The notes: generated from the letters alone by a model not told the origin. Counted from the stretch's first letter, positions 9,241-49,267 are shown. The stretch: 49,275 nucleotides of DNA from an uncultured Planctomycetales bacterium (GCA_964635405.1 CAZWOH010000001.1:8589-57863), one strand, 5' to 3'. Translations and numbers: made by a program.

Positions 9241-9283
9241 TGGGGGAATACGCTTAGGAATGGGCAAATAAGGAGGAATTTCG

Positions 9284-13391: not shown

Positions 13392-13430
13392 AAACCCGAT
13401 TCCTTAGCTAAGGGGGAGTCGGGTTTTTTT
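13392..13430 (+). terminator. Intrinsic terminator in an AT-rich gap
   Basis: aaaacccgattcc-ttagctaagg-gggagtcgggttttttt: GC-rich stem plus a T7 run. Confidence 0.6.
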
Positions 13431-13450
13431 ATTGGGCTGATGGAGAGGTT

Positions 13451-15240: not shown

Positions 15241-16311
15241 ATGAAAAAAGACTTATTCAGAGCAGACGTCGTACGTTCCGGCAACGTCAAGATCGATAGA
15301 GATTCAGCAGTCATCAATGGCTTCGCTGTAGTCACGAAAGGCGTTACGAAGGACAGCCGAGGCGAGTTTGATGATATCTCGCTTAATTCTGTTGTTGAGC
15401 TTGGGAACAAGGTGAAAACGGGAGTCAAATCACGGTTTGGTCATCCCAACATGAGTAGCACGGCACTCGGCACTTTTTTGGGCAGGGTGCGGAATTTCAG
15501 GCGTGATGGAGACATAGTCAGAGCGGACTTGCACATCGATAAGACGGCTTTTGAAACACCGGACGGAGATCTCGCCGGGTATGTGCTTAATCTCGCTGAA
15601 AGCGATCCGGAGATGTTTGGTGCGTCGATGGTGATTTATTGGGATGAGGAAAAACGAGAGGGCTTGGACGCTAATGGCAACGAACTACCGCCGTTCATTC
15701 GTGTCACCAATCTTTTCTCGGTTGATGTGGTGGACGATCCAGCGGCGAACAACGGTCTTTTTGGTATGCCGTTTTTCTCCGAAAGCGTGAGGCCGTCAGC
15801 GGAGATGACAGCCTTCTTGGACAAATTCCTTAACAATCCTGATGCGGTAGAGAAAACCATCGGGTTTTTGAATAGATATCGTTTGAATAAAGAAGTGCAA
15901 TCCAAACCTAAAGAGGAGGTGTTAACGATGCATGATTTAACGTTAGAGAAGTTGAAAGAGGAGAGAAAGGATATTTTTGATGCGGCTCATAAACAAGGCT
16001 TTGACGCTGGCGTTCAGGACGAACGTGGCAGGGCGGTTGCGATCTTGAAAAAAGCGGAATCGTTTCAGGGTATGAGCGCTCTCGCATTGGAGTCGGTTGA
16101 GCAGGGGCTCACGCTTGATCAATCTGTCGTGAAGTTCCAGCAGAAGCGGCTTGATGATATCGAGAAAGCGTCAGCGCCGGTTGTCGGGCCTGATGGAGAG
16201 GAAGTATCCAAAAAGAAGGTGACTCATTTGGAGCGTGCTCGGCAGTACCAGAAAGAACACGGGTGCGGCATGACGGACGCTCTTAAAGCGACAGCGGACA
16301 AAAGGCAATAA
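15241..16311 (+). CDS. Prohead protease / scaffold protein
   Basis: 356 aa directly after the portal. The C-terminal half is coiled-coil and charged, like the gpC/Nu3 arrangement. Confidence 0.7.
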   Translation: MKKDLFRADVVRSGNVKIDRDSAVINGFAVVTKGVTKDSRGEFDDISLNSVVELGNKVKTGVKSRFGHPNMSSTALGTFLGRVRNFRRDGDIVRADLHIDKTAFETPDGDLAGYVLNLAESDPEMFGASMVIYWDEEKREGLDANGNELPPFIRVTNLFSVDVVDDPAANNGLFGMPFFSESVRPSAEMTAFLDKFLNNPDAVEKTIGFLNRYRLNKEVQSKPKEEVLTMHDLTLEKLKEERKDIFDAAHKQGFDAGVQDERGRAVAILKKAESFQGMSALALESVEQGLTLDQSVVKFQQKRLDDIEKASAPVVGPDGEEVSKKKVTHLERARQYQKEHGCGMTDALKATADKRQ

Positions 16312-16332
16312 CTATAAAGGAGGAGGTAAACA

Positions 16333-16686
16333 ATGTCTCAATTTAATATCGGATCAAAAGCGTTTGTGGCGGGAGAGGATTTAGAAGCTTACCGCCGGGT
16401 GAAGTTAAGCGCAGGAAGCGGCTCGCAGGTTGAGTACGCAGACGCAGGTGAGGCTTGCATTGGGATCACGGCGGCAAAGGCGGCGCAGGGTGAGCATATC
16501 AGCGTTGATTTAAAAACCAGCGGCAGGACGTTCAAGATGGTGGCGGCCGGGGTTATCAGCGCAGGTGGTGATGTTTACGGAGCCAATGACGGCAAGATCA
16601 GCGCAGTCGTGAGCGGCTCTATTATCGGAAAAGCGCTGGAAGCCTCGACAAGCGATGAGGAAGTCATTGAAGGGCTATTTGCCTAA
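16333..16686 (+). CDS. Head decoration protein (gpD-position)
   Basis: 117 aa, Gly/Ala-rich, between the protease and the major capsid gene. SD aggagg. Confidence 0.6.
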   Translation: MSQFNIGSKAFVAGEDLEAYRRVKLSAGSGSQVEYADAGEACIGITAAKAAQGEHISVDLKTSGRTFKMVAAGVISAGGDVYGANDGKISAVVSGSIIGKALEASTSDEEVIEGLFA

Positions 16687-16705
16687 TCAAAAGGAGGAAT
16701 AAAAA

Positions 16706-17662
16706 ATGCCAGACTATCAGGGAACAAGAGCAGTACCGAGACTTGAGTTAGGGGAAGCGGCGTTGGAGTTTATCCAGTCGCAGAATGAATTTATTGGCAC
16801 GCAGGTTCTGCCAATTTTTCAGACCAAAAAGAAAGCGAGTATCTTTCCGGCGATCACAAGGGAAAGCATCACTCGTGAGGCGGACACCAAGCGTGCGCCT
16901 CGAGGCAACTACAACCGTGATTCGTTTCAGGCGAAAGACAGGCAGTACGCCTGCGAGGAGCATGGTTTGGAAGGGCCTCTTGACGATTCCGAACGGGAAA
17001 TGTACGCCACGGATTTTGACGCCGAGCTTACAACCGTTCAGATCGTGACACGCAGGGTTCTGCAGGCGCAGGAAAAACGCATTGCCTCAAAAGTTTTTGA
17101 CACCTCCGTTTTTACGGGGTCAAAACTTTTCACCGACTTTTCGGGCGAGCCTTGGGATAACGCCTCGAGCGATGTTATCGCTCAGGTGCGAGCCGCTCGT
17201 GAGCAGGTGAGGCAAAACTGCGGGATGGAACCCGGTTCGCTCATTATGAGCAAAGCGAACATCGACCGACTTCTGAACAATGACAAGATCAAGGGTGCGA
17301 TTCAGTATGTCGCAAGATTGACTGAGGCGGAACTCTTGAACGCCATGGCGGACATACTCGGCGTTAAGCGGATCATTGTCGGAAGGGCGATATACAACAC
17401 AGCGAAGGAAGGCAAGGCATTTCAGGGAGCGGATATCTGGAGTGACGACTTCGCTATGGTCGCTGTGATCGGTGAAGGGCAGAGATTGTCCGATCCGACC
17501 GTGGGAAGGACGTTTCTGTGGACTGCGGACAGCCCGGAAAACGCCACGGTTGAGCAGTATCGTGATGATGCGGCCAGAAGCGACATCTTCCGTGTGCGTC
17601 AGCATGTGGACGAGATGATCGTTGATCCGTACTTCGCCCATCTTTTAAAAGTAGACGCTTAA
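16706..17662 (+). CDS. Major capsid protein (gpE-like by size and position)
   Basis: 318 aa. SD aaggagg. Followed by a stem-loop. Confidence 0.85.
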   Translation: MPDYQGTRAVPRLELGEAALEFIQSQNEFIGTQVLPIFQTKKKASIFPAITRESITREADTKRAPRGNYNRDSFQAKDRQYACEEHGLEGPLDDSEREMYATDFDAELTTVQIVTRRVLQAQEKRIASKVFDTSVFTGSKLFTDFSGEPWDNASSDVIAQVRAAREQVRQNCGMEPGSLIMSKANIDRLLNNDKIKGAIQYVARLTEAELLNAMADILGVKRIIVGRAIYNTAKEGKAFQGADIWSDDFAMVAVIGEGQRLSDPTVGRTFLWTADSPENATVEQYRDDAARSDIFRVRQHVDEMIVDPYFAHLLKVDA

Positions 17663-35376: not shown

Positions 35377-35622
35377 ATGGCGAAGAAAGCGAAGAAGCAA
35401 AAGGTCGTAAAGGTTCAGCCGGAAGTTAAACAGACCCGTAACGCCCTGATGTTGCAGGCGAAGGATCGGGGTGTCAAGAATTTCCGTGTGCTTAATAAGG
35501 AAGAACTCACGCAGGTGTTGGCGGACGGCGTAACGCAGGAACGGATCAATGAAGTTGTGTCTGGCGCAGTCGCACGTTGGAAGGCTGGCTGGGGTAAAAG
35601 GAAGGCGCAGAATGAAAGTTAA
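35377..35622 (+). CDS. Small basic protein with a Rho-N/SAP-like helix motif
   Basis: LMLQAKDRGVKNFRVLNKEELTQVL. SD gggagg. Confidence 0.55.
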   Translation: MAKKAKKQKVVKVQPEVKQTRNALMLQAKDRGVKNFRVLNKEELTQVLADGVTQERINEVVSGAVARWKAGWGKRKAQNES

Positions 35623-35923
35623 AGCTGAACTTGATTTGAAGATCGAGATGAGTGGCGTGTCTCATATCGGTACCGGGTGTCAGGGTTATTTACCTGAAGG
35701 CACCCGATATGAGGAGATTGTCCGGGCCTTTGGTCAGCCGCAACTTGGTCGATCGCTTGATGGTAAGACGAAGGCTGAGTGGGTTGGTCGGATCAATGGG
35801 TTAGTGTTCACGATTTACGATTACAAATCATCGCTCGAGCCGGAGAGGAACGCCGACTGGCATATCGGCGGGAAACAGAAGTTTGTGGCGGAGCTGGTGA
35901 ATATTTATTTTCAGAGTTGTTAA
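35612..35923 (+). CDS. Hypothetical protein (103 aa), the last phage-like gene
   Basis: The ATG at 35612 follows aaggaagg. The track ORF opens at 35549. Confidence 0.55.
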   Translation: MKVKAELDLKIEMSGVSHIGTGCQGYLPEGTRYEEIVRAFGQPQLGRSLDGKTKAEWVGRINGLVFTIYDYKSSLEPERNADWHIGGKQKFVAELVNIYFQSC

Positions 35924-35964: not shown

Positions 35965-36060
35965 AACAATTTGGAATGAGTCCCGAGTTCGAAGGAATAA
36001 ATCCCGGACTTTAAAAAAGCAAAACCTTCGCTGGTTACATTGACCGGCGAAGGTTTTTTT
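35965..36060 (+). ncRNA. Candidate short transcript, copy 1 (promoter + conserved core + intrinsic terminator)
   Basis: TTGATT (35930) N16 TATAAA (35952). The 51-nt core gtcccgagttcgaaggaataaatcccggactttaaaaaagcaaaaccttcg (35980-36030) is shared with copy 2. Terminator ccttcgctgg/ccggcgaagg plus T7. Confidence 0.3.
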
Positions 36061-36138: not shown

Positions 36139-36327
36139 ATGAGTAAATCCGAGCGAGAAACGAATATGAAAAAAACAACTATCGAAATCTGTGAGGATCA
36201 ATATTTTTTTCTAAAAGAGAAGGCGCTTGAATTACAGAAGCAAAATAAAAACGCTTCTATCATATCTATAATTCGTGAGCTGATTGATCGAGATATGAAA
36301 GAATGGAATAGATCTAAGAAAAAATAA
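36139..36327 (+). CDS. Ribbon-helix-helix (CopG-like) regulator, putative RM controller
   Basis: KKTTIEICEDQYFFLKEKALELQKQ...IISIIRELIDRDM fits a beta-strand plus two-helix RHH layout. SD aaggag. Confidence 0.6.
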   Translation: MSKSERETNMKKTTIEICEDQYFFLKEKALELQKQNKNASIISIIRELIDRDMKEWNRSKKK

Positions 36328-36341
36328 TGATCGGAGAATAA

Positions 36342-37406
36342 ATGCGTTTTATTGGCTGTAAGAATAATATATTAGAGCAAATTTATGAATTTATTTTATC
36401 TAAAAAGATTTATGGTGGCACTTTTTTTGATATTTTTAGCGGGACAACGAGTGTAGCCTCTTTCTTTAAGCGCAAAGGATATCGGGTTATTTCTAATGAC
36501 AATTTATATTTCTCGTATGTTCTACAAAAGGCATATATTGAGACGAATGCTCAACCCGATTTTTCACGACTATTAAAAATGGTCAAATTGCCCCCTAATG
36601 GGGAAACAGCTCCTTTGAACAAGGTAATTAAGTACTTAAATTCCCTTAATGGCAATAAAGGGTTTGTATACAAAAACTATACTGACAAAGGAACGCAAGG
36701 CAGTGAACATATAAGAATGTATTTTCAATCCGATAACGGCGGTCGTATTGATGGCGTAAGGCAAAAGATTGAAGAGTGGAATGGTTCTGGTTTGTTGTTG
36801 GAGTCAGAGTATTTTCTTCTTCTTGCTTCATTAATTGAAGCCGTGCCTTCGATTTCAAATATTTCTGGAACATATGGGGCTTTTTTAAAGTTTTGGGAAC
36901 GGAGAACATTTAATCCATTGATGCTTAAAGTTCCGGAGATTATTATTAATTCGTACAAAGATAACAAGGCCTTTAATGAAGACGGTACTGATCTTTGCAA
37001 AAATATTGAATGCGATATTTTATATATTGATCCACCATATAACGCACGCCAATATGCACCCAATTATCATGTGTTAGAGACTGTTGCTCGGTACGACAAC
37101 CCTGTTGTATCCGGGAAAAGTGGTATGCGGAATTATGAAAAAATGAAGTCGCAGTTTTGTAAGCGACAAACAGCTATCGAAGCCCTTAAGAAAATTGTGA
37201 CAACGGGTAAATATAAGCATTTAATTTTAAGTTATAACAACGAAGGGCTGATGACGGATCGGGATATTCGACAAGCGCTTGCTTCTGCGGGAGCTACAGT
37301 TGAGAAGGAAGTAATAGAGTACAGGAGATATAAAAGTCACAGCCATGGCGATAATGGCAAAAAGAAGGTTAATGAATTGCTTTACTATATAAATAATGGA
37401 AGGTAA
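36342..37406 (+). CDS. N6-adenine DNA methyltransferase (D12/Dam-like class)
   Basis: N-terminal MRFIGCKNNIL and FFDIFSGTTSV (motif I). ILYIDPPYNARQYAPNYH (motif IV). Confidence 0.9.
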   Translation: MRFIGCKNNILEQIYEFILSKKIYGGTFFDIFSGTTSVASFFKRKGYRVISNDNLYFSYVLQKAYIETNAQPDFSRLLKMVKLPPNGETAPLNKVIKYLNSLNGNKGFVYKNYTDKGTQGSEHIRMYFQSDNGGRIDGVRQKIEEWNGSGLLLESEYFLLLASLIEAVPSISNISGTYGAFLKFWERRTFNPLMLKVPEIIINSYKDNKAFNEDGTDLCKNIECDILYIDPPYNARQYAPNYHVLETVARYDNPVVSGKSGMRNYEKMKSQFCKRQTAIEALKKIVTTGKYKHLILSYNNEGLMTDRDIRQALASAGATVEKEVIEYRRYKSHSHGDNGKKKVNELLYYINNGR

Positions 37407-37408
37407 AA

Positions 37409-38626
37409 ATGGCAAAAGACAAGCACGATCTTAATTTTCAAGGGGATATGTTTTCCACTAACACCTATTTCTTAGAAGAAGAAATCAAAAAATGTATTCT
37501 TAAAAACAAATTATCAGCGCACGAGAAGGAAATATTAGAAGAAATTAAAGAGATCAGTTTGGGATATGTAAAAAGCAAAGTCAAAATTGAAAAAAACAAA
37601 TCAAGGCTTGATGCCATTGATGCACAAAAAGAAAAAGTGCCGCTGAAAGGGCATATTGATAAAAAAGATATGGTCAAACTTCCTGATTGGATCAAGGAGA
37701 AGATTGACGATGCTTTTATTGTCGGGAAGTCTGGGAGGGTTGTAAGCGTTGGAGGCAAGAAATACCACTTGGACAACCCTTTAAATGATCTTGATGGTGG
37801 TGTTTGGACTTATTTTCTACGATCAGTGATAAACACACGGTATCCAGTATCTGGACCTGAAGGATTTGCGCATCATATCCGTAAAATACACCCCACGCCA
37901 AAGCCTCCGCAATTGATGCGTGATATTATCAAGTTTTTTACTAAAAAGAATGAATGGGTGCTTGATTATTTTATGGGTGTCGGCGGGACACTGCTTGGTG
38001 CATCTTTGTGTGATCGGAATGCAATAGGTATTGATTTAAATAAAAAATATATTGAGGCATATAAGAAGGCTTCAAAAGAACTTGGGTTGAAAGAGCAGGT
38101 TTGTTTGTGCGGTGATTCCTTGGAGATTTTAAGCTCATCTAAAATATCGGAAATTACAAGGAATGACAGAATATCGCTAATCTGTATCGATCCTCCTTAT
38201 GGGGATATGATGAGCAGAAAGAAGACAGGAGAGGCGGCGAAAAAAAAGCTTTCTACAGAATCAACGCCATTTACCGATCACAGCCAAGACCTTGGGAATG
38301 TTAGCAAGGAAACGTTTTTAACGTTACTGAGAAAATCTGTTGAGGGCGCCATTAATTATTTGAAAGATAAGCGCTACGTAATTGTTTTCACAAAAGACTT
38401 TCAGCCTTCTGGAAAGGATTTAAATTTATTGCATTACGATATTATCAAAGAACTCAGCGGGATTACAGGATTGAACTATGTAGGAATGAAAATATGGGCG
38501 GATGAAAGTATTAATTTATATCCTTATGGTTATCCGTATGCTTTTGTTCCAAACCAATTGCATCAATATATACTTGTTTTTAGAAAAGAAGCTCAAGTGG
38601 ATCGTAAGGCCGCTAAGGCATCTTGA
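37409..38626 (+). CDS. Second DNA methyltransferase (N6A/N4C type)
   Basis: VLDYFMGVGGTLLGA (motif I-like) followed by ISLICIDPPYGDMMS (motif IV). Confidence 0.8.
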   Translation: MAKDKHDLNFQGDMFSTNTYFLEEEIKKCILKNKLSAHEKEILEEIKEISLGYVKSKVKIEKNKSRLDAIDAQKEKVPLKGHIDKKDMVKLPDWIKEKIDDAFIVGKSGRVVSVGGKKYHLDNPLNDLDGGVWTYFLRSVINTRYPVSGPEGFAHHIRKIHPTPKPPQLMRDIIKFFTKKNEWVLDYFMGVGGTLLGASLCDRNAIGIDLNKKYIEAYKKASKELGLKEQVCLCGDSLEILSSSKISEITRNDRISLICIDPPYGDMMSRKKTGEAAKKKLSTESTPFTDHSQDLGNVSKETFLTLLRKSVEGAINYLKDKRYVIVFTKDFQPSGKDLNLLHYDIIKELSGITGLNYVGMKIWADESINLYPYGYPYAFVPNQLHQYILVFRKEAQVDRKAAKAS

Positions 38627-39954
38627 ATTGTCTGTGGGGTATTTTGAGAGGTAAAAATGTCGCCCCTATCAGAAAGGATAAGTGCCACTTGCTGAATGTT
38701 GGTGATATTATTATTCCCGCCAAATAGGACGACAAATCTCTTTACTTGATATTCAGGATATTGAGGATTTATCCATTCTTGTTCAAGAGGATCGTAATCA
38801 TTTAATTCATCGAGTCCGTTCTGGAGATTTGAGATCTTTTTACCCTCGATTAATAGAATTTCTTTGAGTGTATGGTTGCATACAATTAGGTCTGGAATTC
38901 GCAGAGGGCTATCATTGGCATCTTTTTTGGGTAGAGCAACAAAAGCACCGTCTGATTTCCTAAAATAGCCACGTTCGCAACCGGCATGATTTTCATAGAT
39001 GCATTCGGTTCCTTGCAACGATTCGCATATTAAATGGGTGAAGATAGTTGCAATTTTTTCCGAAGAGTTCTCATAATACCAGTACGTTTGCGCAGGGGTG
39101 TTATGAGGTATCGTTAGGCCGTCCATTCCTACGTTAAGTAAATTTAGAATGGCTACAAATTTGTTTGCTCGAACACCACGTTGATTTATATTGTGTTGTA
39201 TAACAGTTATATTATTTGTCCAGCCGAGCTTCCGTATGCTTTTCAGAATTAAAGATAGTGCGCCCATGTTTGGATCATGAATAATAGTGTGCGGCGCTTG
39301 CGGTTTGTCAAGCCTCCCAGATACTGTAATATGGGAAGTTGTTTTATTTATTAATATTGGGGTGTTCCCTCTCGGTGGGCGGCGCATGTTGTTCTTAAAC
39401 GAGATCAGCTCATCGATAGATGAGAAAGGTTTGAATATATTTGGATCAAGACGCCTACCTATAATTTCCACCCCTAATGTCAACAGCATTCGGGTGCCAA
39501 ATATATTGGTATCTGTAGAATGGTCGGCTGAGTGCGGAACCTGATAGTTGTATAGCATTATTTTCTTAACTTGAGGATAATAAAGATCAATGTAAACAAA
39601 TTTTGATCCCCGTTGATATACCCCGGTATTTCGTGATTCCTCATCAGTAGTTTTTGTTTCTTCTATTGCGTAAATCGGGGTTGAGGTCTCGTTAGGCTCG
39701 GAGTCTTGAGCAAATACTAGAAAGTCAACAAAACTTTGGTTGCCGCTTACTAGCTTTATGGTCAACTCTTGAATAAGGGGGGATGAAAACCCTGAGACCG
39801 CATAAGTAAAAGTAAATCTATTACTTACTATTGATGGCTTGATAATGAGGTTAGCAAATGATATCTGAGAGCGATTGTCTGAACAATATTTCTCAAGGAT
39901 CACTCGCAGGACGTTCTTTTTCGGGCGTTCTTCAGTTAGTATCCATAATTTCAT
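38593..39954 (-). CDS. Putative type II restriction endonuclease
   Basis: 453 aa, convergent with and 34-nt overlapping the methyltransferase gene. PD-(D/E)xK-like IPDLIVCNHTLKEILLIEGKK. There is no other recognisable domain. Confidence 0.6.
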   Translation of the reverse strand: MKLWILTEERPKKNVLRVILEKYCSDNRSQISFANLIIKPSIVSNRFTFTYAVSGFSSPLIQELTIKLVSGNQSFVDFLVFAQDSEPNETSTPIYAIEETKTTDEESRNTGVYQRGSKFVYIDLYYPQVKKIMLYNYQVPHSADHSTDTNIFGTRMLLTLGVEIIGRRLDPNIFKPFSSIDELISFKNNMRRPPRGNTPILINKTTSHITVSGRLDKPQAPHTIIHDPNMGALSLILKSIRKLGWTNNITVIQHNINQRGVRANKFVAILNLLNVGMDGLTIPHNTPAQTYWYYENSSEKIATIFTHLICESLQGTECIYENHAGCERGYFRKSDGAFVALPKKDANDSPLRIPDLIVCNHTLKEILLIEGKKISNLQNGLDELNDYDPLEQEWINPQYPEYQVKRFVVLFGGNNNITNIQQVALILSDRGDIFTSQNTPQTIQDALAALRST

Positions 39955-40097
39955 TTAAATACCTTTCATGTCGCCTGTTAAGGAGTTACGCAAGAGGGGG
40001 AATATGCATTGCAGGCATCTTTTTATTTTACCAAGAATATTATTGAAAGTCCATAATTTTGCTTGACTTCTGGCTATTTTCTTTATATAAGTATATG

Positions 40098-40206
40098 TGT
40101 AGAGTTAGTGTTATTCCGTCCCGAGTTGGAAGGGATAAATCCCGGACGTTAAAAAAGCAAAACCTTCGGCAGGTGCCATTATGTTCACCTACCGGAGGTT
40201 TTTTTG
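40098..40206 (+). ncRNA. Candidate short transcript, copy 2
   Basis: TTGACT (40063) N17 TATAAG (40086). Core 40118-40168 differs from copy 1 at 3 of 51 positions. The terminator stem is different but compensated: ccttcggcaggtg/cacctaccggagg plus T7. Confidence 0.3.
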
Positions 40207-40233
40207 TTTTTAGGCAAATACAGGAGGTGTGGT

Positions 40234-40464
40234 ATGGGGAAAAATCAGCATGTGGTAAAAACGGATGACGGGTGGGGTGTTCGTGGTGAAGGCAATTCTC
40301 GATTAACATCGGAACATCACACCAAAAGCGCCGCTGAAAACGCCGCAAGGCAGATTGCGAAAAATCAGCATTCAGAGTTAGTTATTCACGGCCGTGATGG
40401 GAAAATTCAGGATAAGGACAGCTTTGGCAATGACCCTTGTCCGCCAAAGGATCGCAAGCATTAA
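40234..40464 (+). CDS. DUF2188 family protein
   Basis: HVVKTDDGWGVRGEGNSR...ELVIHGRDGKIQDKDSFGNDPCPPKD matches the DUF2188 signature. SD aggaggtg. The track ORF opens at 40204. Confidence 0.85.
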   Translation: MGKNQHVVKTDDGWGVRGEGNSRLTSEHHTKSAAENAARQIAKNQHSELVIHGRDGKIQDKDSFGNDPCPPKDRKH

Positions 40465-40488: not shown

Positions 40489-41595
40489 ATGGCAAAACAC
40501 AGATCATTCAAGATTGAGAAATTTGTCACTGGGGTCAGTAGTGATCTTCTCAAGGCGTATTTTACCCGGAAAAACGTTCCGGTAGCCGATGGCTTTGTCT
40601 TTGACCGAAATAATATCCACGACTTCTTAGACGGCATTAGTGATGATGGGAAGCGGTCGTACATCGAGGAGGAGTTGCAGTGCATTAACGATGTCGCTGA
40701 TCGTGCTAGGGGATATCTTGAACAGGCAAAGCGGCAGTATAACATAGCGGTTCAGGATGATGAACCGTCCGAGACAACCGCTATGCGGGTTTTTCTCCAC
40801 AGTGAAGAAGCGTTCTCGCTCGCCTTTGATTTCTACTTATATGTTGTCTACTCCGAAAAATTAAGCCACCACAAATTTGATCATAACAACTGCAACTTCG
40901 CTGAGGAGCGTGTCGCTCAATTGAAGGCGGCCATCGAACAGCACTTCAAGGATACCGGTAAAAGCGAGCATTGTGATATCCGGTACAGAACCCACAACGG
41001 CAAGCATATTGTTTTGATAGCGCATGGCGATTACATGAAAACGCACCTTATATTTAAGGATGGGAAAGTCGATATTCAGTCGTTTCGCCCGGCCAGAGAG
41101 GATATGCTTGTTTTTGACACGAGGAATTGCGTATTAAGCGTGAACGCTGGCGGCTGGAGCGAGGCTGATAAAAAGCGGTATATCGAGATATTCGGAAACG
41201 CCATCCTCGGCATGGATCAGGTGCCTGAGGCGACGTTCAACAACACATTGGTTGTGCTTGATCCTATTAAGAACGGCACTTTCAGCTATGCCGGGAATGA
41301 TAATGTTGAGTCTGTCCTTCTGACAGAGGTGAAGGTTAAATGCCGGGGGACAAAGGTTATAAAGGTAACGATTAACTGTGGCGACGTCAGGCAGGCGTTT
41401 TCGGATTTAAATATATCCATGCAGGACGCTGAGTATGTGTCGGCTAAATTACGGTTTTACATTAAGCGTAGCGGTAAAAAGGCGAAGTCAATAACGGTCG
41501 AAATTAAGCCGCCGGAAAACACGAAATTACCCGAGAAAGCGGAAAAGGGGATTATTGAGGCGTATCTGCATGACAACGGAGTTCTGTTAACGTGA
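40489..41595 (+). CDS. Hypothetical protein A (368 aa), first gene of a coupled operon
   Basis: Long ORF with no motif that I recognise and no Walker A. Confidence 0.75.
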   Translation: MAKHRSFKIEKFVTGVSSDLLKAYFTRKNVPVADGFVFDRNNIHDFLDGISDDGKRSYIEEELQCINDVADRARGYLEQAKRQYNIAVQDDEPSETTAMRVFLHSEEAFSLAFDFYLYVVYSEKLSHHKFDHNNCNFAEERVAQLKAAIEQHFKDTGKSEHCDIRYRTHNGKHIVLIAHGDYMKTHLIFKDGKVDIQSFRPAREDMLVFDTRNCVLSVNAGGWSEADKKRYIEIFGNAILGMDQVPEATFNNTLVVLDPIKNGTFSYAGNDNVESVLLTEVKVKCRGTKVIKVTINCGDVRQAFSDLNISMQDAEYVSAKLRFYIKRSGKKAKSITVEIKPPENTKLPEKAEKGIIEAYLHDNGVLLT

Positions 41596-44243
41596 TGTTG
41601 AACTTCATTTTAAAAAGTATAGAGGTTTTTCCTACCGCATCGTTCACCGAGAGCGAGTTAGTGCGTATTTCAAAGACCGATTTTAATTCCCTGACAAAGC
41701 AGAAATATTTAGATCGCCTGAAGTATGACTACATGAAAGAGCCGTATTATTCTTCCGCTTTGGGGGATAATGGGAACGAACGGCAAATTAAGAAGGTTGG
41801 TGGCCGACTCTACGCATATTCAGTGGAATCAGCGGACAGTGCGCCTATCGAGGTGACAGAAGCGGATCTGAGGCGGTATCAGCTTTCATTCCCGGCTTTG
41901 TTCAATAAAATCCGCACGGTAAACAAGATCGAAGGCAAGTTTCAAGAAATCCCGGAAGGATATTTTTACGTAGGGTATAAGCTATATGACAGTTTTCGTG
42001 TCGGCTTTATCTTTATACCAAAGCTCGGGGACGGCAAGTTGGTCAAATTCGCCGGGTTAAAGGACATATGCAAAGATGACAAGGTTCTCGTTGTCCTCAC
42101 ACCATTCACGAAGATCGAGGACATCGTATTAAACTGGACGTTGAGTAAGTGCAAAATAGTCACGGCTCCGCTTGCGTCGTCGCTTGATTTCAAAACATTC
42201 AAGCTGTCCGTTGACGATCTCATTAGAGAATTCATGCCTGAGGGCGGGGCAACGGCGCTCACTAAAAAGCAGGCGAAGGATTATAAGGATTTTGATTATA
42301 AGTGTTACGATAAAATTCGTATTCCGGGAACCGCCCCTATGAAGCGGAGCAACGACCTTGAGGTAAACGGTCACAAAATCAAAATGCCGGACAATGCGTT
42401 CAAGCTATTTCTCGAGATGGTTGTTGAGCTCAAGAAGGGAAAGGGTGGTTGGTTGACCAAGGTTGTGGATGCTGGGAAGTATCAGATATTTGACCGGGTT
42501 CGATCGCCGCTTCAGGGTAGCTTGCTTGGTAAGGACGCAAAGAAATTTATTGAGAATAATGCCTCGAAGCAGTATCGAATATCGACACACCCGGATTTTA
42601 TTACTTATGAACGAAATAATCTATTAAAACATGCGGATTCGAGCGTTCAATCTCTTGCGAAAAAATTAGCTCGTAGAAAAGGGGTCAAAGGTATGGCACA
42701 GATTATTCTTATGCTTTTGCTATTGGCGTCGCCTGTATATGCAGACCAAGTTTCGTTTAAAGAAGTGAAGGCATATCTGGAGAATACTGTTCAATTGCAC
42801 GAGCCGGAGGATAAATCAATTAACAGTGAGGCGTACGACTATCCTGCTGTCAATATCGTTTCTTTGTGGCAGAAGTTGGGGATACAATTTGCGCCTTTAC
42901 AGGATAAGGATGACACGTATGTATTTGGGTGCAAACCCGGGCAATTGGAGTGCTTCTTGCCTTATCCAAAAGCGGATGTTATTGAGAACGGGAATGCCAA
43001 AATAATTCGCATATCGAAGTCTATCCCATGGGATTACCAATATCTGTTTTTTAAGAGAATAGGAGATGGGTATTTCTATTTCGATCATCTGGAATTTGAT
43101 ATGCAGAAATACGAGGAGCCCGAATTTACTTTCCTTGAGCCGGATCTTTTTGCAATAAAAGTTTTGAGCGGATCGGGAACGGACACAATTTCCTATACGA
43201 CAAAACTGTTTCAGATCTCAGATGGAGGTATTAAAGAATTATTATCTTTCGTGACAATGCATGAGCGACAAGGATGGGGCCTGTGTTTTGATGCGGCAAT
43301 AAATTCACGCTATAAATATTCAAAGGAAACGCTAGCGATTGATTTCGATGTCAAAGTTAAGATGAACGATAATAATTATGAGTCGAAGATTAAAGGCAAG
43401 TTATCGGAGCAACCAGTGATTCATGCCAAGAAAAAAGTAGTTATGATCCGCAAGCCTGAGGGGTTCGTTTTAGATAAAGACAGATCAACCACCACGGTTG
43501 AGGACATGGATAAATTGCATTGGGGCGGGTATGTTGATTATTATGATGCGTTTAAGGTTGATTTTGATGCACTCGAGCGAAGTAATCCTAAAACTAAGGA
43601 GTGGTTTGAGTTTTTCAAGAAGGAATTATCCGAATCTAAAGATAGCGAGGAGGTAGACGAAATGCCTAACAATAAAAAAGACGAATGGTTGAACTTAAAG
43701 GAGAGACTTGGTGTGACAGACGATGTCGTTGAGCGATACGGTGAGGCAGACATTGCGATGCCAGCCAGTGAGAAGGAATATGTCGATTTGGGCGGGAATG
43801 CAATTGCCATGATTAGGGCGGTTGCCGCAAATCGCAATGAACTTCCTTTGGCAAAGGCATATTTTCAGAATCCTGATGGGAAACAAGTAATGTTAAGCAA
43901 ACTGGTGATGAGTAGTGAAGATTCGACGTTTTCAGGAAATGAAATAACGGAAACTAAATTTGCTGATGGCAAAGAAAAGCGCTTTTCAAATCTTTCTTTC
44001 TGGCTGGTCCCCATCAATTTGATGTTGGATGATAAGGCCGTGCTTGGTGTTGATTTTAAGGAGAATCGGGAATCATTTATTATACTGCGTGGGCCTTGGA
44101 ATATTAATGCGCAGAATCGGGAATTTGTTAGAAAGTGCTCTGAGGGGAAGATTACGCTTCCTGAGCGATTGGATAGTAACATCGTAGGAGATTTCATTGT
44201 TCGGGAGTTTGTCAATCCAGCAATGGCTACAGAGGATAAATAA
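41592..44243 (+). CDS. Hypothetical protein B (883 aa) with an internal signal-peptide/anchor-like segment
   Basis: Start GTG 41592 or ATG 41595, overlapping the upstream stop. Residues about 355-390 read KKLARRKGVKGMAQIILMLLLLASPVYADQ. Confidence 0.75.
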   Translation: MMLNFILKSIEVFPTASFTESELVRISKTDFNSLTKQKYLDRLKYDYMKEPYYSSALGDNGNERQIKKVGGRLYAYSVESADSAPIEVTEADLRRYQLSFPALFNKIRTVNKIEGKFQEIPEGYFYVGYKLYDSFRVGFIFIPKLGDGKLVKFAGLKDICKDDKVLVVLTPFTKIEDIVLNWTLSKCKIVTAPLASSLDFKTFKLSVDDLIREFMPEGGATALTKKQAKDYKDFDYKCYDKIRIPGTAPMKRSNDLEVNGHKIKMPDNAFKLFLEMVVELKKGKGGWLTKVVDAGKYQIFDRVRSPLQGSLLGKDAKKFIENNASKQYRISTHPDFITYERNNLLKHADSSVQSLAKKLARRKGVKGMAQIILMLLLLASPVYADQVSFKEVKAYLENTVQLHEPEDKSINSEAYDYPAVNIVSLWQKLGIQFAPLQDKDDTYVFGCKPGQLECFLPYPKADVIENGNAKIIRISKSIPWDYQYLFFKRIGDGYFYFDHLEFDMQKYEEPEFTFLEPDLFAIKVLSGSGTDTISYTTKLFQISDGGIKELLSFVTMHERQGWGLCFDAAINSRYKYSKETLAIDFDVKVKMNDNNYESKIKGKLSEQPVIHAKKKVVMIRKPEGFVLDKDRSTTTVEDMDKLHWGGYVDYYDAFKVDFDALERSNPKTKEWFEFFKKELSESKDSEEVDEMPNNKKDEWLNLKERLGVTDDVVERYGEADIAMPASEKEYVDLGGNAIAMIRAVAANRNELPLAKAYFQNPDGKQVMLSKLVMSSEDSTFSGNEITETKFADGKEKRFSNLSFWLVPINLMLDDKAVLGVDFKENRESFIILRGPWNINAQNREFVRKCSEGKITLPERLDSNIVGDFIVREFVNPAMATEDK

Positions 44244-44246
44244 GCA

Positions 44247-44804
44247 ATGAATTTTCCGATTTTGACAAACAAAGAAGTAAAGACAAAGGATTTTGTTGAT
44301 TTCTGGAGTGGTTTCTACAACTATTCATTTGAATCATATTACGTTCCTATTGTCGAAAAAAAGCGGTTCTCAAAAGATGATCTGTCGAAGCTGTTTGAGT
44401 GGAAGAACGGCGGGAAGTTAGCGAAAAAGAAGCAGAAGGCGCTGGATAGCATCATCGCAAAAATCGGCAGAATTAATACCCTCAAGGCAAATTTTTGTAT
44501 TGATACATTTTTGAAAGAATTTAGTTTTGTCAAAGGCATGATATGGAAGATGTTCCTTTTACATGTTATTCAGCCGGATAACTATCCGATTTTTGATCAG
44601 CATGTTTACCGTGCGTATTTATTCATTGCTAAGGATCAACGAGCGGAAATCCCAGACAATAAGCACAAGCAAGATGTGTATTTCAAAGAATACGCCCCGT
44701 TTTTTAATGATTTGGCGGGCAAGGGTATCTCAAGGAAAAAGTTAGACGAAGCCCTCTGGGCATTTGGAAAATTTCTCAAGACGCCGTACGGGGGCAAAAT
44801 ATGA
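44247..44804 (+). CDS. Hypothetical protein C (185 aa), possibly OGG/HhH-like fold
   Basis: MFLLHVIQPDNYPIFDQHVYRAY and LDEALWAFGKF resemble the family annotated as 8-oxoguanine DNA glycosylase OGG fold protein. This is from memory and unverified. Confidence 0.6.
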   Translation: MNFPILTNKEVKTKDFVDFWSGFYNYSFESYYVPIVEKKRFSKDDLSKLFEWKNGGKLAKKKQKALDSIIAKIGRINTLKANFCIDTFLKEFSFVKGMIWKMFLLHVIQPDNYPIFDQHVYRAYLFIAKDQRAEIPDNKHKQDVYFKEYAPFFNDLAGKGISRKKLDEALWAFGKFLKTPYGGKI

Positions 44805-46066
44805 GAGACCCGCATCAGAACATATTTTTCTATTATCGTGGACCTTCTAAAAACAGGGAAGTGTCGTTATATGATTTTCAGGTTGAAGATAATACGACAA
44901 AGAGCTTAATCAATATCTTGGAGTTTTGTTGCCAAGCGGGGTATGAGGATTTATTCAATAGGTTTTTGGGGTTGATTAATGCGCCACGTCGACCAGTTGT
45001 TTATTTTAAGCTACAAAAAGGATTGAGCGATAGTCGCCCGGACGCTTTGATTGATCTTGCTGATTACAATATTCATATCGAATCAAAGGTCAGGGCGAGA
45101 TTGGATATTGGGCAGATCAAGCGTCATTTAAAAGATATCGGGAAGCAAGATGTATTGGTTGTTATAACGAATGACCGGCAGGATAAAAAGCATATAAGCG
45201 AGATTGGGGATCAGCGGCTCAGATATTTGGATTGGGCAGAAGTCCATAAACTTTGCTTAAAATCTATTGAGACAATCCGTGGCGATAGACGCATGGTTGC
45301 GATTCTGCATTTAATTGAGCAGTTTATTGATTACATGGAGGTTGTGGTTATGACCGAATTTAATGGATTCAAGAACTCGGATTTTGACTTTTGGGTAGAT
45401 CCGAACCCATATTACGTGCCAATTTTAAGAAAGAAGCTGGAGGCTTTGGCTACCATAATTAAGGAGAAACTTCCACGGGATATTGGGCAAGAATATTCCT
45501 TTATTAAGCCCGGCAATATAGCACGGAGCGGTAAGGACGAGCGGTTTGCGTGGGTAGCTATCAAGAGACCGAAGGATGGTAAAGATATTTTCAATCAGTG
45601 CAATTTTACGATAGAGGTATCAAAGAGTTGTCTTGATATCAACACCGTTGTGCGTAATGGCCGAACCCATCAAATTAGAACGCCTATCGGAGTTTTTTAC
45701 AATAAGATAACGAATAATCCTGAGAGATTCTTGCAGGTGATCAAGGGAATAAAACAAGAGGCGAGAATTGTGGTTTCGAGAAGGTTGCCACGGGCTGGAA
45801 AGCGCATTATGCCCGGGAACGAAAAATGGGTGAAATTTTTTGATATGAAGCTGAGTGACATCGCAAATAAGCAGGACGTGATTTACTTAGGAGACGTGTT
45901 AAAAAAGGCGGATAAGGATCCCGGAGCTCCCGGCATACATTTTAGATACTCGATTGACAGGGGATCGAAAGTGTTAACAGAGCCCATTAAATTGGAAGAT
46001 GAGATTATAGACACGATTACGGAATTTAAACCGATATTAGATTATTTAGAGGGAAAGAAGGATTAA
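44801..46066 (+). CDS. Hypothetical protein D (421 aa) with an N-terminal PD-(D/E)xK nuclease-like motif
   Basis: RPDALIDLADYNIHIESKV (D...ExK). ATGA-coupled to C. Confidence 0.65.
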   Translation: MRDPHQNIFFYYRGPSKNREVSLYDFQVEDNTTKSLINILEFCCQAGYEDLFNRFLGLINAPRRPVVYFKLQKGLSDSRPDALIDLADYNIHIESKVRARLDIGQIKRHLKDIGKQDVLVVITNDRQDKKHISEIGDQRLRYLDWAEVHKLCLKSIETIRGDRRMVAILHLIEQFIDYMEVVVMTEFNGFKNSDFDFWVDPNPYYVPILRKKLEALATIIKEKLPRDIGQEYSFIKPGNIARSGKDERFAWVAIKRPKDGKDIFNQCNFTIEVSKSCLDINTVVRNGRTHQIRTPIGVFYNKITNNPERFLQVIKGIKQEARIVVSRRLPRAGKRIMPGNEKWVKFFDMKLSDIANKQDVIYLGDVLKKADKDPGAPGIHFRYSIDRGSKVLTEPIKLEDEIIDTITEFKPILDYLEGKKD

Positions 46067-46068
46067 TT

Positions 46069-47295
46069 ATGAAGTTTAAAATTTTTGCATTCTTATTGTT
46101 GTCAGCTATCTTTTTGGCCGGATGCGGAAGTGATTATAAAGAAGATCTGAAGCAAGCGGACAAAATATATGAAGCTGGCGACAGAGAATCTGCAAAGAGG
46201 CTGTATATCAAGGCCGCTAATAGGGGCAGTGCAGATGCTCATTTTGCGATTGCCTATAAGTATAATGTGACCCCAGAGGAAAGCATTTATCACTTTTCGG
46301 AGGCCGCAAAAAAAGGTCACGAAGATGCTTTGGATTATGCGCTCGATGCTCTGTTATTTAGAGCAAACAGCTTAGAAAGAGCGAATCCTAAAAAAGCGCT
46401 TGAGGTATATAAACAAGCTAAGAAGGTGAACCCATCAATAAAATTGTATGATGAGGATGTGAAGCTCAAGACGATTCAAATGAGCGTTGAACCGGGCGAG
46501 TTTGATTGGAAGGCTTTTTGCAAAAAGTATGACGTTTTGCCCCATGACGATGATGCTATGTACCACGTTTGGAGGATTGCGGAAGATGCTTCAAAAGGGG
46601 GACGGTTTGGGAAGCCGGATCCAAAGCTAATCTTGCAATTGGTATCCCGTGGCGGATGGGCTCCCGCTGAATTAGAGTATGCTGTCGAAGCGACTTATAA
46701 AGATTGGAAAGCGGGCAAAGTTAAGGAATTCAACATCTGCGATTATATCACGAGTGGCGGTGGCATGGCGTTCTGCGCTTCTAGGGCGGATGATGATGAC
46801 GAAAAAGAACGGGATACAAAAATGAAATTGATTGGTCAAAAGATTGACAGTCAGTATAGAAAATTGCTTGAATCGGCTTATGCGTCAGCGGTTAAATTCA
46901 TTGACTCCAAGGCATCAAATGAGGAGGGGCATGGAGGATCCGGGCGGGGTGCTTGGGTTGTCGGGTCTCAAATGGATCAAAAGAACGAATATTTAGATTT
47001 GGTTGAGAAAGTTCGTACTGGATTTAAGCCATCTCCTAAAAATACTTTTGTAAAAGCAGATCAGAAACTCAATGAAACCTATAAGAAGGTTATGGGTGAT
47101 CTTAAAAAGCGGGCTGATGATTACAACGTGCCCCGGGTTGATGATGTGCGTGTTGTTCAGCGTCTTTGGATTCCATATAGAGACGCCTCGGCTAAGCTAT
47201 TTTCAGCTATTAATCCCTCTGTGAATGAGGACACATGGAAGTGTTGGTTGACCGAGGTTAGGGAAAAACAGCTTAAGGATATTTTTTCTCTGTAA
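46069..47295 (+). CDS. Lipoprotein with Sel1-like repeats and a C-terminal LprI/DUF1311-like domain
   Basis: Lipobox LLSAIFLAGC. Sel1-like AANRGSADAHFAIAYKY and AAKKGHEDALDYAL. C-terminal ADQKLNETYKKV...QRLWIPYRDA. Confidence 0.75.
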   Translation: MKFKIFAFLLLSAIFLAGCGSDYKEDLKQADKIYEAGDRESAKRLYIKAANRGSADAHFAIAYKYNVTPEESIYHFSEAAKKGHEDALDYALDALLFRANSLERANPKKALEVYKQAKKVNPSIKLYDEDVKLKTIQMSVEPGEFDWKAFCKKYDVLPHDDDAMYHVWRIAEDASKGGRFGKPDPKLILQLVSRGGWAPAELEYAVEATYKDWKAGKVKEFNICDYITSGGGMAFCASRADDDDEKERDTKMKLIGQKIDSQYRKLLESAYASAVKFIDSKASNEEGHGGSGRGAWVVGSQMDQKNEYLDLVEKVRTGFKPSPKNTFVKADQKLNETYKKVMGDLKKRADDYNVPRVDDVRVVQRLWIPYRDASAKLFSAINPSVNEDTWKCWLTEVREKQLKDIFSL

Positions 47296-47296: not shown

Positions 47297-47479
47297 TTAT
47301 ATGCAGGAAACGGGCATTTTGCTGGATTTTTGCCGGTGTTGTGATAAAATACCTTTATTGTAAGGTTGGGAATTGTCGATTGGCTCCCCTAGAGATATCA
47401 GCGATCCCATACTACGTCTACGGTAGAGTTTTATAAGTAGAGGTATTTCAAGGGGTTGTAGGGTTCGCCTATCGTCCAC
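47297..47479 (-). other. Small minus-strand ORF inside repeat copy A (possibly a gene fragment)
   Basis: Encodes (V)DDRRTLQPLEIPLLIKLYRRRSMGSLISLGEPIDNSQPYNKGILS..., the conserved peptide shared with copy B. There is only a GTG start, and an in-frame stop lies at 47558-47560. Confidence 0.35.
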
Positions 47480-47488
47480 GACTACCCG
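47342..47488. repeat. 147-bp repeat, copy A
   Basis: Aligns without gaps to 49025-49171 with 123 of 147 identities (hand count). The 3' 62 bp are nearly identical. Confidence 0.85.
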
Positions 47489-47669: not shown

Positions 47670-48569
47670 GTGTTTAAAAAATTTTGTTTAATGAACGTGG
47701 TCTTCTTGTTGGCTTCCCATGGGGCTTTTGCACAGGAGGAAACACTGCAGGCGAAAATTTCGCGCATTGTTGCGCCGATGAGAGCAGAGGTTGGTGTTTC
47801 CATTCTTGGCATAGAGGACAGGAAGGCTTTGGGTGTTAATGAGGAAAGCAAGTTTCCCATGCAAAGCGTTTTTAAATTCCCTCTCGCTTTGACTGTCTTG
47901 AGCGAAGTGGATAAAGGCCGCTTGGCATTGGATCAGGAAATAAATATACGCAGGAACGATCTTTTGCCGAATACCTGGAGCCCGATAAGGGATAAGTATC
48001 CCGATGGAGATATCAAGATGTCATTGGCCGAGATTTTAAAATATACCGTGGCCCAAAGCGATAATAACGGATGCGACATTTTGCTGAAGCTTATCGGAGG
48101 GCCTGCGGTGGTAAATGATTATATACATGGCCTCGGCATCAAGGATTTTTCCGTCCAATTTAACGAACAAGAGATGCATAAAAACTGGAACGTCCAGTTT
48201 TCTAATTGGGCTACTCCCGTAGCTATCATCGAGTTGCTTAAAATTTTTTATGAAGAGAAGATTTTATCCCGTAAAAGCTTTGATTTTCTTTGGGGTGTGA
48301 TGACGGAAACAAAGACAGGGCAGAACAGGATCAAGGGGCAGTTGCCGCAAGGAACTGCGGTTGCTCATAAAACGGGGACCTCTGATACGAATAAGGAAGG
48401 AATTACGGCAGCTGTCAATGATGTGGGGATTATCACTTTACCCGACGGTAAACATGTCGCCATTGCTGTATTTATTGCCAACTCGCGCGAGGATGTCGCA
48501 ACGAATGAAAAGATCATCTCCGACATCTCCAGGGCCGTCTGGGATAATTTTGATGGACGCGTGCGGTGA
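47670..48569 (+). CDS. bla: Class A beta-lactamase
   Basis: Signal peptide MFKKFCLMNVVFLLASHGAFA. S-x-x-K (SVFK). SDN (AQSDNNGCD). KTG (AHKTGTS). GTG start behind gaggg. Confidence 0.9.
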   Translation: MFKKFCLMNVVFLLASHGAFAQEETLQAKISRIVAPMRAEVGVSILGIEDRKALGVNEESKFPMQSVFKFPLALTVLSEVDKGRLALDQEINIRRNDLLPNTWSPIRDKYPDGDIKMSLAEILKYTVAQSDNNGCDILLKLIGGPAVVNDYIHGLGIKDFSVQFNEQEMHKNWNVQFSNWATPVAIIELLKIFYEEKILSRKSFDFLWGVMTETKTGQNRIKGQLPQGTAVAHKTGTSDTNKEGITAAVNDVGIITLPDGKHVAIAVFIANSREDVATNEKIISDISRAVWDNFDGRVR

Positions 48570-48644: not shown

Positions 48645-49016
48645 ATGAGTCAAAGAATGCTTACTGAGAAACAAGCAAGAGAATTTGCAAGCCATTGGAT
48701 TGATGGATGGAATTCACACAATCTGGATGCGATTATGGCGCATTATGACGAGAAAGTTGTTTTGACTTCTCCAGTCGCGCAAAAGATTATGAATATCCCA
48801 TCCGGCACAATCGAGGGCAAAGCAGCATTGCAAGTTTACTTTGCCAAAGGACTGGACTTTTACCCTGATTTAAGATTTGAACTTATTGAGGTAATGTGGG
48901 GAATAAAAAGCGTGGTTGTGCATTACAAAAATCAGAAAGGTATAAAAGTTGGGGAATTAATGGAATTTGGTCTGACAGGTAAAGTTATTAGGGTTATTGT
49001 AAATTATAATAGTTAG
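48645..49016 (+). CDS. SnoaL/NTF2-like fold protein
   Basis: 123 aa. AREFASHWIDGWNSHNLDAIMAHYDEKVVLTSP is a typical SnoaL-like N-terminus. Confidence 0.75.
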   Translation: MSQRMLTEKQAREFASHWIDGWNSHNLDAIMAHYDEKVVLTSPVAQKIMNIPSGTIEGKAALQVYFAKGLDFYPDLRFELIEVMWGIKSVVVHYKNQKGIKVGELMEFGLTGKVIRVIVNYNS

Positions 49017-49267
49017 CGCCGTTTTGATAAAATACCTTTACGGTATGGCTGGGTAGTGTCGATGGGTAGGTCAAGAGATATTAGCGACCCCGTACTTCGT
49101 TTGCGATAAATTTTTATAAGTAGCGGTATTTCAAGGGGTTGTAGGGTTCGCCTATCGTCAACGACTACCCGTATTTCCTCGTCTAGCGCCGACCTTCGAA
49201 CCTTTGGTGAAGGTTGGCGCAAATTTAGAAAAGAAATAGGAGTACTTGTGAGGCTCCGCCCGAACAA
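49013..49267 (-). other. Small minus-strand ORF inside repeat copy B. It may continue beyond the window.
   Basis: 84 aa from the ATG at 49267. Its C-terminal 50 aa are homologous to the copy A ORF. Its stop overlaps the SnoaL-like stop. Confidence 0.4.
49025..49171. repeat. 147-bp repeat, copy B
   Basis: See copy A. It begins 9 nt after the SnoaL-like stop codon. Confidence 0.85.

Follow-up and report, generated by a model that had tools for sequence, protein, structure and literature searches.

Does a string of tightly coupled, co-directional genes in a defence island work as one system? The question is raised by five open reading frames (ORFs), here called A to E, at positions 40489-47295 of a 49,275-nucleotide stretch of DNA from an uncultured Planctomycetales bacterium (GCA_964635405.1 CAZWOH010000001.1:8589-57863; the whole stretch is called the window below). 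An earlier note on the same DNA had proposed a single A-B-C-D(-E) system, serving either defence or envelope sensing. Comparison with approximately 100 related loci (labelled L0xx and L1xx, with homologous proteins labelled P0xxx) gave a different answer; the block is very likely a mosaic, in which A and the first part of B (B1) and, less strictly, C and D form stable units, and the other parts are exchangeable. We consider it probable that the block forms the cargo-bearing, accessory end of a temperate phage, built from independently exchangeable cassettes and not one five-component machine, and that it works broadly as set out below; the mechanisms proposed for the individual parts, taken one at a time, range from tentative to about even.

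The five ORFs all lie on the plus strand and have the lengths claimed for them: A (40489-41595, 368 aa), B (41592-44243, 883 aa), C (44247-44804, 185 aa), D (44801-46066, 421 aa) and E (46069-47295, 408 aa). Their junctions are as tight as had been described; A and B meet at GTGATG, an overlap of 4 nt if B starts at GTG or of 1 nt if it starts at ATG, B and C are separated by 3 nt, C and D overlap at ATGA, and 2 nt separate D from E. A Shine-Dalgarno-like purine run precedes each of the five starts, no convincing plus-strand terminator was found within the block, and the string is probably co-transcribed. The G+C contents of A (46%), B1 (44%), the two remaining parts of B, termed B2 (40%) and B3 (42.5%), C (38.5%), D (41%) and E (43%) all lie below the 49.2% of the prophage body, in line with the AT-richness first reported. 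No Walker A motif occurs in A to E, again as first reported, and only two hydrophobic segments were found, one internal to B (residues 364-389) and the other the lipoprotein signal of E. Scans against Pfam, NCBIfam, PHROGs and PADLOC returned nothing useful for A to D, and megablast found nothing among plasmids and phages that matched the block.

B, which had been taken as one gene, proved to be an in-frame fusion. In an exhaustive HMMER search, separate proteins matched residues 1-362 (B1), approximately 370-686 (B2) and approximately 690-880 (B3), and the 24 other members of the 90% cluster of B were, without exception, 360-364 aa long or contig-truncated fragments, the 883-aa form occurring in this strain only. 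B1 (41592-42692, plus strand) is normally a 362-aa protein; in the window its stop codon is missing, and it reads into B2B3 (42693-44243, plus strand), a putative secreted protein of approximately 516 aa with its own Shine-Dalgarno sequence (AAGGGG), an ATG at 42693 and the signal peptide MAQIILMLLLLASPVYA|DQ. Within this interval, B2 corresponds to residues 368-688 of B, approximately, and B3 to residues 689-883. A stand-alone B2B3 protein of 515 aa, P0099, is 76% identical and starts with a signal peptide of classical type. At the point where the window continues into MAQIILMLLLLASPVYA|DQ, both L106 and L015 carry a stop codon, and nucleotide homology between the window and L106 ends at 42659 (approximately codon 356 of B1), to resume at 44238. 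From the lengths in the B1 cluster, these breaks in homology, the stop codons of the relatives and P0099, we reasoned that the 883-aa ORF is a by-product of cassette exchange and not a protein designed in two halves; the recombination that installed B2B3 removed the last six or so codons of B1 together with its stop.

L106 belongs to a sister prophage at the same chromosomal site (L106-108), in which A is 98%, B1 92%, C 79%, D 92% and the beta-lactamase gene beyond the block 95% identical to the window. There, B1 ends at its own stop and is followed by two different signal-peptide genes (196 and 247 aa), and E is absent. The slot between B1 and C is filled by B2B3 in the window (42693-44243), by the 196-aa protein and the PD40-like 247-aa protein in L106 (8108-9450) and by a 255-aa protein in L016 (387-1154), that is, by different signal-peptide proteins in three lineages. 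In L015 the slot holds instead a PD-(D/E)xK-looking protein of 279 aa and a metallo-beta-lactamase (MBL)-fold protein, and in L109 (1-994) the B2 homologue is apparently frameshifted, with matches in two frames, either through sequencing error or as a decaying gene.

Every junction of the block except that of A with B1 was found broken in other genomes. Homologues of A form 91 clusters, all of approximately 368 aa and all unannotated, and an overlapping B1 follows A directly in nine of nine independent loci (the window, L015, L055, L056, L057, L058, L060, L061 and L106). This linkage holds from 98% down to 36% identity in A and from 92% down to 25-28% in B1, in temperate phages and prophages of several phyla; judged by gene order, A and B1 are a strictly linked two-gene module, and L055-L061 carry it without C, D or E. 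The module is accessory and not core: a motif scan found A in only four viral contigs, and in one of the 15 related contigs that reach 35 kb or more and have a conserved 124-aa late gene of this phage group. The idea that A and B1 are a core phage gene pair was rejected, since most related phage contigs are without them.

C (at least 122 homologues) and D (98 homologue clusters, in Omnitrophota, Planctomycetes, Woese- and Nanoarchaeota) are associated less strictly. C lies ahead of D, again overlapping it by 4 nt, in L010, L016, L098, L106 and L109, and further homologues of the two are found on common contigs. Both also occur without their partner: C stands alone between housekeeping genes in L099, a C homologue (42% identical) lies inside a type I restriction-modification (RM) operon in L100 (6260-12850; hsdM-C-hsdS-hsdR, with a 4-nt overlap with hsdS), L015 is without C, and among approximately 40 genome loci that a D profile picked out no gene but D is conserved, most of these loci having neither A, B nor C. 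On their arrangement, C and D are a recurrent overlapping pair in defence islands. The possibility that all partners of D are cryptic C homologues was dropped, as hhalign found no significant similarity between the C profile and the different small genes that precede D in L018 and L024. E is absent from L106, L015 and L016; it follows D in L109, in which B2B3-C-D-E recur at 77-91% identity.

Relatives accordingly show A-B1 alone, D alone, C alone, C-D, B2B3-C-D-E and A-B1-other-C-D, and the whole A-B-C-D(-E) unit recurs only in contigs of the identical strain. Three points weigh against reading the block as a mosaic. Larger blocks are kept in close relatives (DUF2188-A-B1-[slot]-C-D in L106 and L016, where DUF2188 is the gene upstream of A, and B2B3-C-D-E in L109); translational coupling and the lack of an internal terminator make functional cooperation between cassettes possible; and the loci were retrieved by means of the genes themselves, many of them on short contigs, so that co-occurrence frequencies are biased.

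What, then, might the stable units do? A, which had been called unrecognisable, could be placed in a fold class. No Pfam, PADLOC or PDB sequence match was found for A, a PDB profile search included. Its AlphaFold2 model (mean predicted local distance difference test score, pLDDT, 83) matched, in a Foldseek search of the PDB, E. coli RdgC (2owl; probability 1.0, E 3.8e-5, TM-score 0.23-0.28), CENP-N and Chl4, and, in BFVD, phage proteins annotated as RdgC. The same structural relatives have been reported for RexA, the lambda exclusion protein of the RdgC/CENP-N/Chl4 fold class, which binds DNA non-specifically (PMC11077077); for A, likewise prophage-encoded and in the size range of approximately 300-370 aa, a non-specific DNA-binding scaffold would therefore be expected. 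Against this stand the global TM-scores, which are low (0.2-0.3) despite the high probability, the position of RexA itself outside the top 50 Foldseek matches, and the lack of any match to RdgC (PF04381) at E<=1 among 58 members of the A family. Low global TM-scores are expected of hinged multi-domain proteins, so the model supports an assignment of A to the RdgC/RexA/CENP-N class at the level of fold class only, and A is predicted to bind DNA. A differs from RexA and RdgC in having no sequence similarity to either and in its extra helical N-terminal region of approximately 125 aa.

A difference from lambda Rex also lies in the partner, since B1 appears to be a soluble winged-helix protein and not a channel with four transmembrane segments like RexB; no RexB-like polytopic membrane partner was found, B1 having no hydrophobic segment (the one in B is the signal peptide of the fused B2B3) and its homologues elsewhere being soluble proteins of approximately 362 aa. 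B1 consists of an N-terminal domain (residues 1-215, approximately), a family without annotation, and a winged helix (residues 235-335, approximately). The C-terminal profile aligned with the DNA-binding domain of ArlR over approximately 95 residues, a weak match (E 0.006-0.02) that covers the whole domain and suggests a winged helix of OmpR/PhoB type. B1 resembles the OmpR/PhoB regulators in this output domain but differs from them in having no receiver domain and a novel N-terminal family; neither Response_reg nor Trans_reg_C of Pfam was detected. The N-terminal domain has no invariant acidic, histidine or lysine residue, which argues against an enzyme. The winged helix (residues 220-360 of B, approximately; 42250-42670 of the window) also ends many proteins, 220-650 aa long, whose N-terminal domains are different (P0128-P0248), among them fusions to a WD40 propeller (P0158), to a QueC-like domain (P0175) and to a region with a weak SduA_C match (P0190), and the N-terminal domain of B1 is likewise found with other C-terminal regions.

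A and B1 would, then, be a DNA-binding pair without recognisable catalytic residues, most likely a Rex-like sensor or regulator of incoming or replicating phage DNA, with either exclusion or control of the prophage's own lysis-lysogeny switch as the outcome. A serious rival, tentative as it is, holds that the pair is a phage regulatory or DNA-metabolism module, acting like RdgC on RecA and recombination, biasing the switch as RexA does, or serving as a transcription-factor pair for the downstream cargo, and carried as an accessory lysogeny function near int/attP. The fold class of A, the OmpR-type DNA-binding domain of B1 and the N-terminal domain of B1, with no invariant residues of catalytic type, all suit this reading, as do L060 and L061, in which A-B1 adjoins the serine integrase, and the finding that RexA can modulate the lambda switch without RexB (PMC11077077). 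The pair is, however, absent from most related phages, so that it is not a core lysogeny function; it is always found among RM systems, DUF2188/PDC-S16, DruA and DUF4268 genes; and the fusions of its winged helix to WD40, QueC-like and possibly SduA-like domains follow a pattern typical of conflict systems.

B2 and B3 remain as unrecognised as they had been, with no PDB or Pfam matches (PDB profile searches included), and are predicted to be exported, uncharacterised families; a metagenome scan with B3 found four loci with little context. E carries an LAGC lipobox and a C-terminal LprI/DUF1311 domain (PF07007, 25.6 bits against a gathering cut-off of 22), so that its LprI-like part stands as the earlier note had it, and its Sel1/TPR-like N-terminal part scores below the Sel1 cut-off; it is, by these features, an LprI/Sel1 lipoprotein and an optional cassette. 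We would see B2B3 and E as envelope-exposed accessory ('moron') proteins, acting, for example, in surface exclusion or lysozyme inhibition. That they are instead the point of the block, whether for surface exclusion, lysozyme inhibition or sensing, and that the cytoplasmic genes are unrelated passengers, is improbable. The signal peptide predicted in B2B3, the lipobox and LprI domain of E, the signal-peptide proteins in the slot after B1 in the window, L106 and L016, and the recurrence of B2B3-C-D-E in L109 speak for it. But no other part of the block is as poorly conserved as B2B3 and E, family and PDB searches found no sensor, kinase or transducer domain, and the B2B3 of this strain has become joined to a cytoplasmic DNA-binding protein, apparently by a recombination accident. 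Envelope sensing, as once suggested, rested only on the export of B2B3 and E; their poor conservation and the failure to find a sensor or transducer domain leave it unsupported.

For D, the PD-(D/E)xK motif noticed earlier is borne out by alignment, model and family matches. Among 26 aligned sequences D81, E94, K96 and Q105 are invariant, in the pattern RPDA...IESKV...Q, and weak PDDEXK_4 matches were obtained in 10 of these 26 members and a DUF1054 match in one. In the AlphaFold2 model (pLDDT 86), the N-terminal domain matched the nuclease domains of MspJI, Bax1, R.BspD6I, AF1548 and Can2 by Foldseek, and the C-terminal half matched B. subtilis YktB/DUF1054 (2a8e, E 2.6e-5, TM-score 0.71 on the target). 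A PDB sequence-profile search with D gave no significant match, and a search of IMG/VR none. The D81/E94/K96 motif together with the modelled fold identifies D, at the level of motif and fold, as a PD-(D/E)xK nuclease, its second domain being YktB/DUF1054-like and of unknown function. D resembles the type IV enzyme MspJI in its core, and PDDEXK_4 and type IV nucleases in occurring as a solo gene in defence islands; it differs from MspJI in having no SRA-like reader domain, its YktB-like domain standing instead, and in the reversed order of its domains.

The neighbours of D vary: a C5-methylase, an unknown gene and Vsr in L010, Hachiman HamA/HamB in L011, and type I RM and DUF2779 in L013. An MBL-fold protein of approximately 430 aa lies within a few genes of D in five loci (L011 12218-13510, L015 8684-9976, L017 18-416, L022 5902-7197 and L050 11245-12588), directly adjacent in L015 and L050, and may be an alternative partner. 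In the archaeal loci L013 (11330-12793), L024, L025 and L026, D adjoins a DUF2779 protein of approximately 480 aa, of PD-(D/E)xK type, which clusters weakly with D in BLAST. Residues 1-29 of D (44801-44887), with the motif MRDPHQNIFYYYRGPS...QVEDNTTK, are among the most conserved of the family and yet have a pLDDT below 50; this segment could be an interaction peptide or become ordered only on DNA.

C is a candidate DNA glycosylase of helix-hairpin-helix (HhH) type, a lead that comes from motifs. Residues W52, K53, N54, K62, W100, H106, P110, P114, D117, H119, D167, A169, L170 and G174 are invariant in the family. D117 lies in FPIFDQHVYRA (PIFDQHVxRA across the family) and D167 in DEALWAFGKF, 50 residues on; W171, four residues past D167, is tryptophan in both the window protein and the family consensus. 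With EndoIII and MutY as models, the two motifs resemble the catalytic-aspartate helix of HhH-GPD glycosylases, to which P-I-F-D-x-H-V-x-R is likened, and the helix that follows it. Weak matches to family models (AGOG, E 0.0056; HhH-GPD, E 0.11) were obtained, each in one of 28 members. Against a glycosylase, no Pfam match and no match in a PDB sequence search was found for C, and its profile gave no significant alignment by hhalign with E. coli Nth or MutY, the sequences of which were entered by hand; the glycosylase is accordingly put forward as a proposal and not as a result. A tblastn search of plasmids and phages with C gave two unannotated plasmid matches of uninformative context.

The Dag defence glycosylases, which belong to the HhH superfamily, are likewise invisible to sequence searches and occur in AT-rich mobile contexts (10.1101/2025.10.29.685425). 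C is like Dag, and like Brig1 and Brig3, in being small, undetectable by sequence-family searches and at home in AT-rich mobile defence contexts. Dag enzymes use a catalytic aspartate and a stacking tryptophan four residues later (10.1101/2025.10.29.685425); the D167/W171 pair of C, compared by motif only, resembles D184/W188 of Dag1. C differs in that its lysine position has no obvious match to K118 of Dag1, and in that a dedicated nuclease, D, often accompanies it; for the Dag proteins, by contrast, each test used one cloned gene.

Together, C and D would be restriction-like. C would flip or excise a foreign, probably modified, base, as the Dag enzymes do, and D would then cut the DNA through its PD-(D/E)xK site, its YktB/DUF1054-like domain providing DNA or lesion binding; D would evidently also work with other partners or alone. 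That the pair belongs to base-excision repair or housekeeping, and not to defence, is unlikely. In its favour, the C motif resembles those of the repair glycosylases EndoIII and MutY, the C homologue of L099 stands alone among housekeeping genes, and the C-terminal domain of D resembles YktB, a chromosomal B. subtilis protein of unknown function. However, the distribution of the pair across bacteria and archaea is patchy, its G+C content is low, it lies on prophage cargo and near RM/Vsr, Hachiman, AbiV, HNH and type I RM genes, and in one case a C homologue lies within a type I RM operon.

As for a single integrated defence system, in which DUF2188, A and B would sense infection, C and D degrade DNA, and E and B2B3 provide an envelope link, all being needed, we regard it as very unlikely: tight coupling, co-direction, the lack of internal terminators, partial conservation of the block in L106, L016 and L109 and the defence-island context speak for it, but every junction except A-B1 is broken elsewhere, most D loci are without A, B or C, L055-L061 have A-B1 without C, D or E, the sister prophage replaces B2B3 and is without E, L015 is without C, and the B fusion is unique to this strain.

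A+B1 and C+D could be two undescribed phage-borne immunity modules, spread across candidate phyla and DPANN archaea: a membrane-free, Rex-like pair, in which A would be a DNA clamp of RdgC/RexA fold and B1 would share its DNA-binding domain with WD40-, QueC- and Shedu-like proteins, and a two-step 'base-excision restriction', in which a Dag-like C would mark foreign (modified) DNA and the PD-(D/E)xK-DUF1054 nuclease D would destroy it. Taken as a whole this is a speculative proposal, with odds clearly against it. A to E matched none of the families of PADLOC-DB v2 at E<=0.1, whereas the neighbouring RM genes and DUF2188 (PDC-S16) did find matches; the same result upholds the view that the block does not resemble a known multi-gene defence system.

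Where the block lies bears on its reading as cargo. The window holds a serine-integrase prophage of approximately 47 kb, and the phage, which has a large serine recombinase, appears to be integrated in an Omnitrophota-like genome. The recombinase gene (40-1695, minus strand) is followed by SNF2 helicase, primase/D5, ParB-methylase, gpA-type terminase, lambda-type portal and capsid E genes; the recombinase, primase, terminase, portal and capsid genes span 40-17662. Late genes, including one of 124 aa, are common to the window, L015, L055-57 and L106. The 124-aa gene (35549-35923, plus strand), which has no Pfam match, is the last of the conserved late genes; its homologues are 69-83% identical in L015, L055-57 and L106, and it also occurs in 36 viral contigs. 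The cargo region starts after it. At the other end, a conserved non-coding sequence of approximately 150 nt, here called the right-end element (RE), follows E (47338-47488, plus strand) and also follows the cargo in L015, L016, L055 and L106, each with different genes beyond. As the block lies between the 124-aa late gene and RE, both conserved, it is phage cargo and not host DNA beside a prophage; the earlier note was right to place an RM cassette and a DUF2188 gene upstream, but the block lies inside the prophage cargo and not at the prophage edge.

The RM cassette, of type II (36139-39954, genes on both strands, 37% G+C), is recognised by Pfam and PADLOC and holds a 62-aa ORF, a D12-class N6-methyladenine methyltransferase (36342-37406), an N6_N4 methyltransferase (37409-38626) and a type II restriction endonuclease (38593-39954, minus strand). 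It is bracketed by a 51-nt direct repeat on the plus strand. The first copy (35980-36030; 35980-36057 with the terminator) overlaps a strong intrinsic terminator with a 17-bp stem, and the second (40118-40168), 94% identical, is followed by a diverged hairpin and U-tract upstream of DUF2188. The 51-mer is conserved in the related phages L015, L057, L075-77, L083 and L106; it lies after the 124-aa gene in L076, L077 and L083 and upstream of DUF2188 in L015, L057 and L106. L106 carries a different RM system where the window has its own, and the cassette looks as if it had been gained by recombination at this conserved intergenic sequence.

DUF2188 (40234-40464, plus strand; 76 aa from its ATG) matches PF09954 (E 4e-24) and the PADLOC candidate PDC-S16 (E 3e-36), and adjoins A-B1 in L015, L055 and L106. 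It ends 24 nt 5' of A and is therefore counted in the same gene string as A to E; DUF2188, A and B1 form the proximal part of the cargo string. A sigma-70-like promoter (TTGACT-17 nt-TATAAG) lies within 40064-40233, followed by the hairpin and U-tract (approximately 40160-40210) before the DUF2188 start, and the latter could be a leader or attenuator that controls the string.

A second copy of RE (49021-49171, plus strand), 83% identical to the first, lies beyond a class A beta-lactamase gene (47670-48569, plus strand) and a SnoaL-like gene (48645-49016, plus strand). This RE-bracketed arrangement recurs in the sister locus L106, and the beta-lactamase could be phage cargo or the remnant of a tandem integration. 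RE has no tRNA, tmRNA or Rfam match, its consensus fold is weak and covariation support was not found; minus-strand ORFs called at 47297-47479 and 49013-49267 are probably artefacts of RE.

The defence-island context that had been proposed is well founded. The equivalent position is hypervariable in 36 related IMG/VR contigs. PADLOC was run on 46 genes, comprising the cargo taken from the position after the 124-aa gene and eight genes neighbouring A and D at other loci; RM methyltransferases accounted for eight of the 46, and others included HKD+Snf2 and type III RM components. Elsewhere, homologues of A/B1, C and D adjoin RM, Hachiman, AbiV, DruA, HNH and Vsr genes. Since this is a hypervariable cargo position that holds RM, HKD+Snf2 and similar genes, the context is taken to be real. 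Prophage-encoded defence hotspots are known from P2 and P4 prophages, among others. The position resembles them in lying between conserved phage genes and the att end, with conserved flanks and variable RM and defence cassettes; it differs in lineage (serine integrase; Omnitrophota and other candidate phyla) and in that the cassette borders are marked by duplicated intergenic sequences, namely the 51-nt terminator repeat and RE.

The locus cautions against assuming that tightly coupled, co-directional genes in a defence island make up a single system; in this case the string consists of two pairs and interchangeable cassettes. It also points to a new defence hotspot in temperate phages of poorly studied phyla (Omnitrophota, Elusimicrobiota and Margulisiibacteriota), the logic of which is familiar, although the A+B1 and C+D pairs are uncharacterised and no part belongs to a described defence system. 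It offers a snapshot of cassette exchange, with intergenic sequences duplicated at the cassette borders and one swap that made a chimeric ORF. If the proposed functions hold, A+B1 would bring a new partner to the RexA/RdgC fold class, and C+D would link glycosylase-based immunity to a dedicated nuclease and provide a first functional handle on the YktB/DUF1054 fold.

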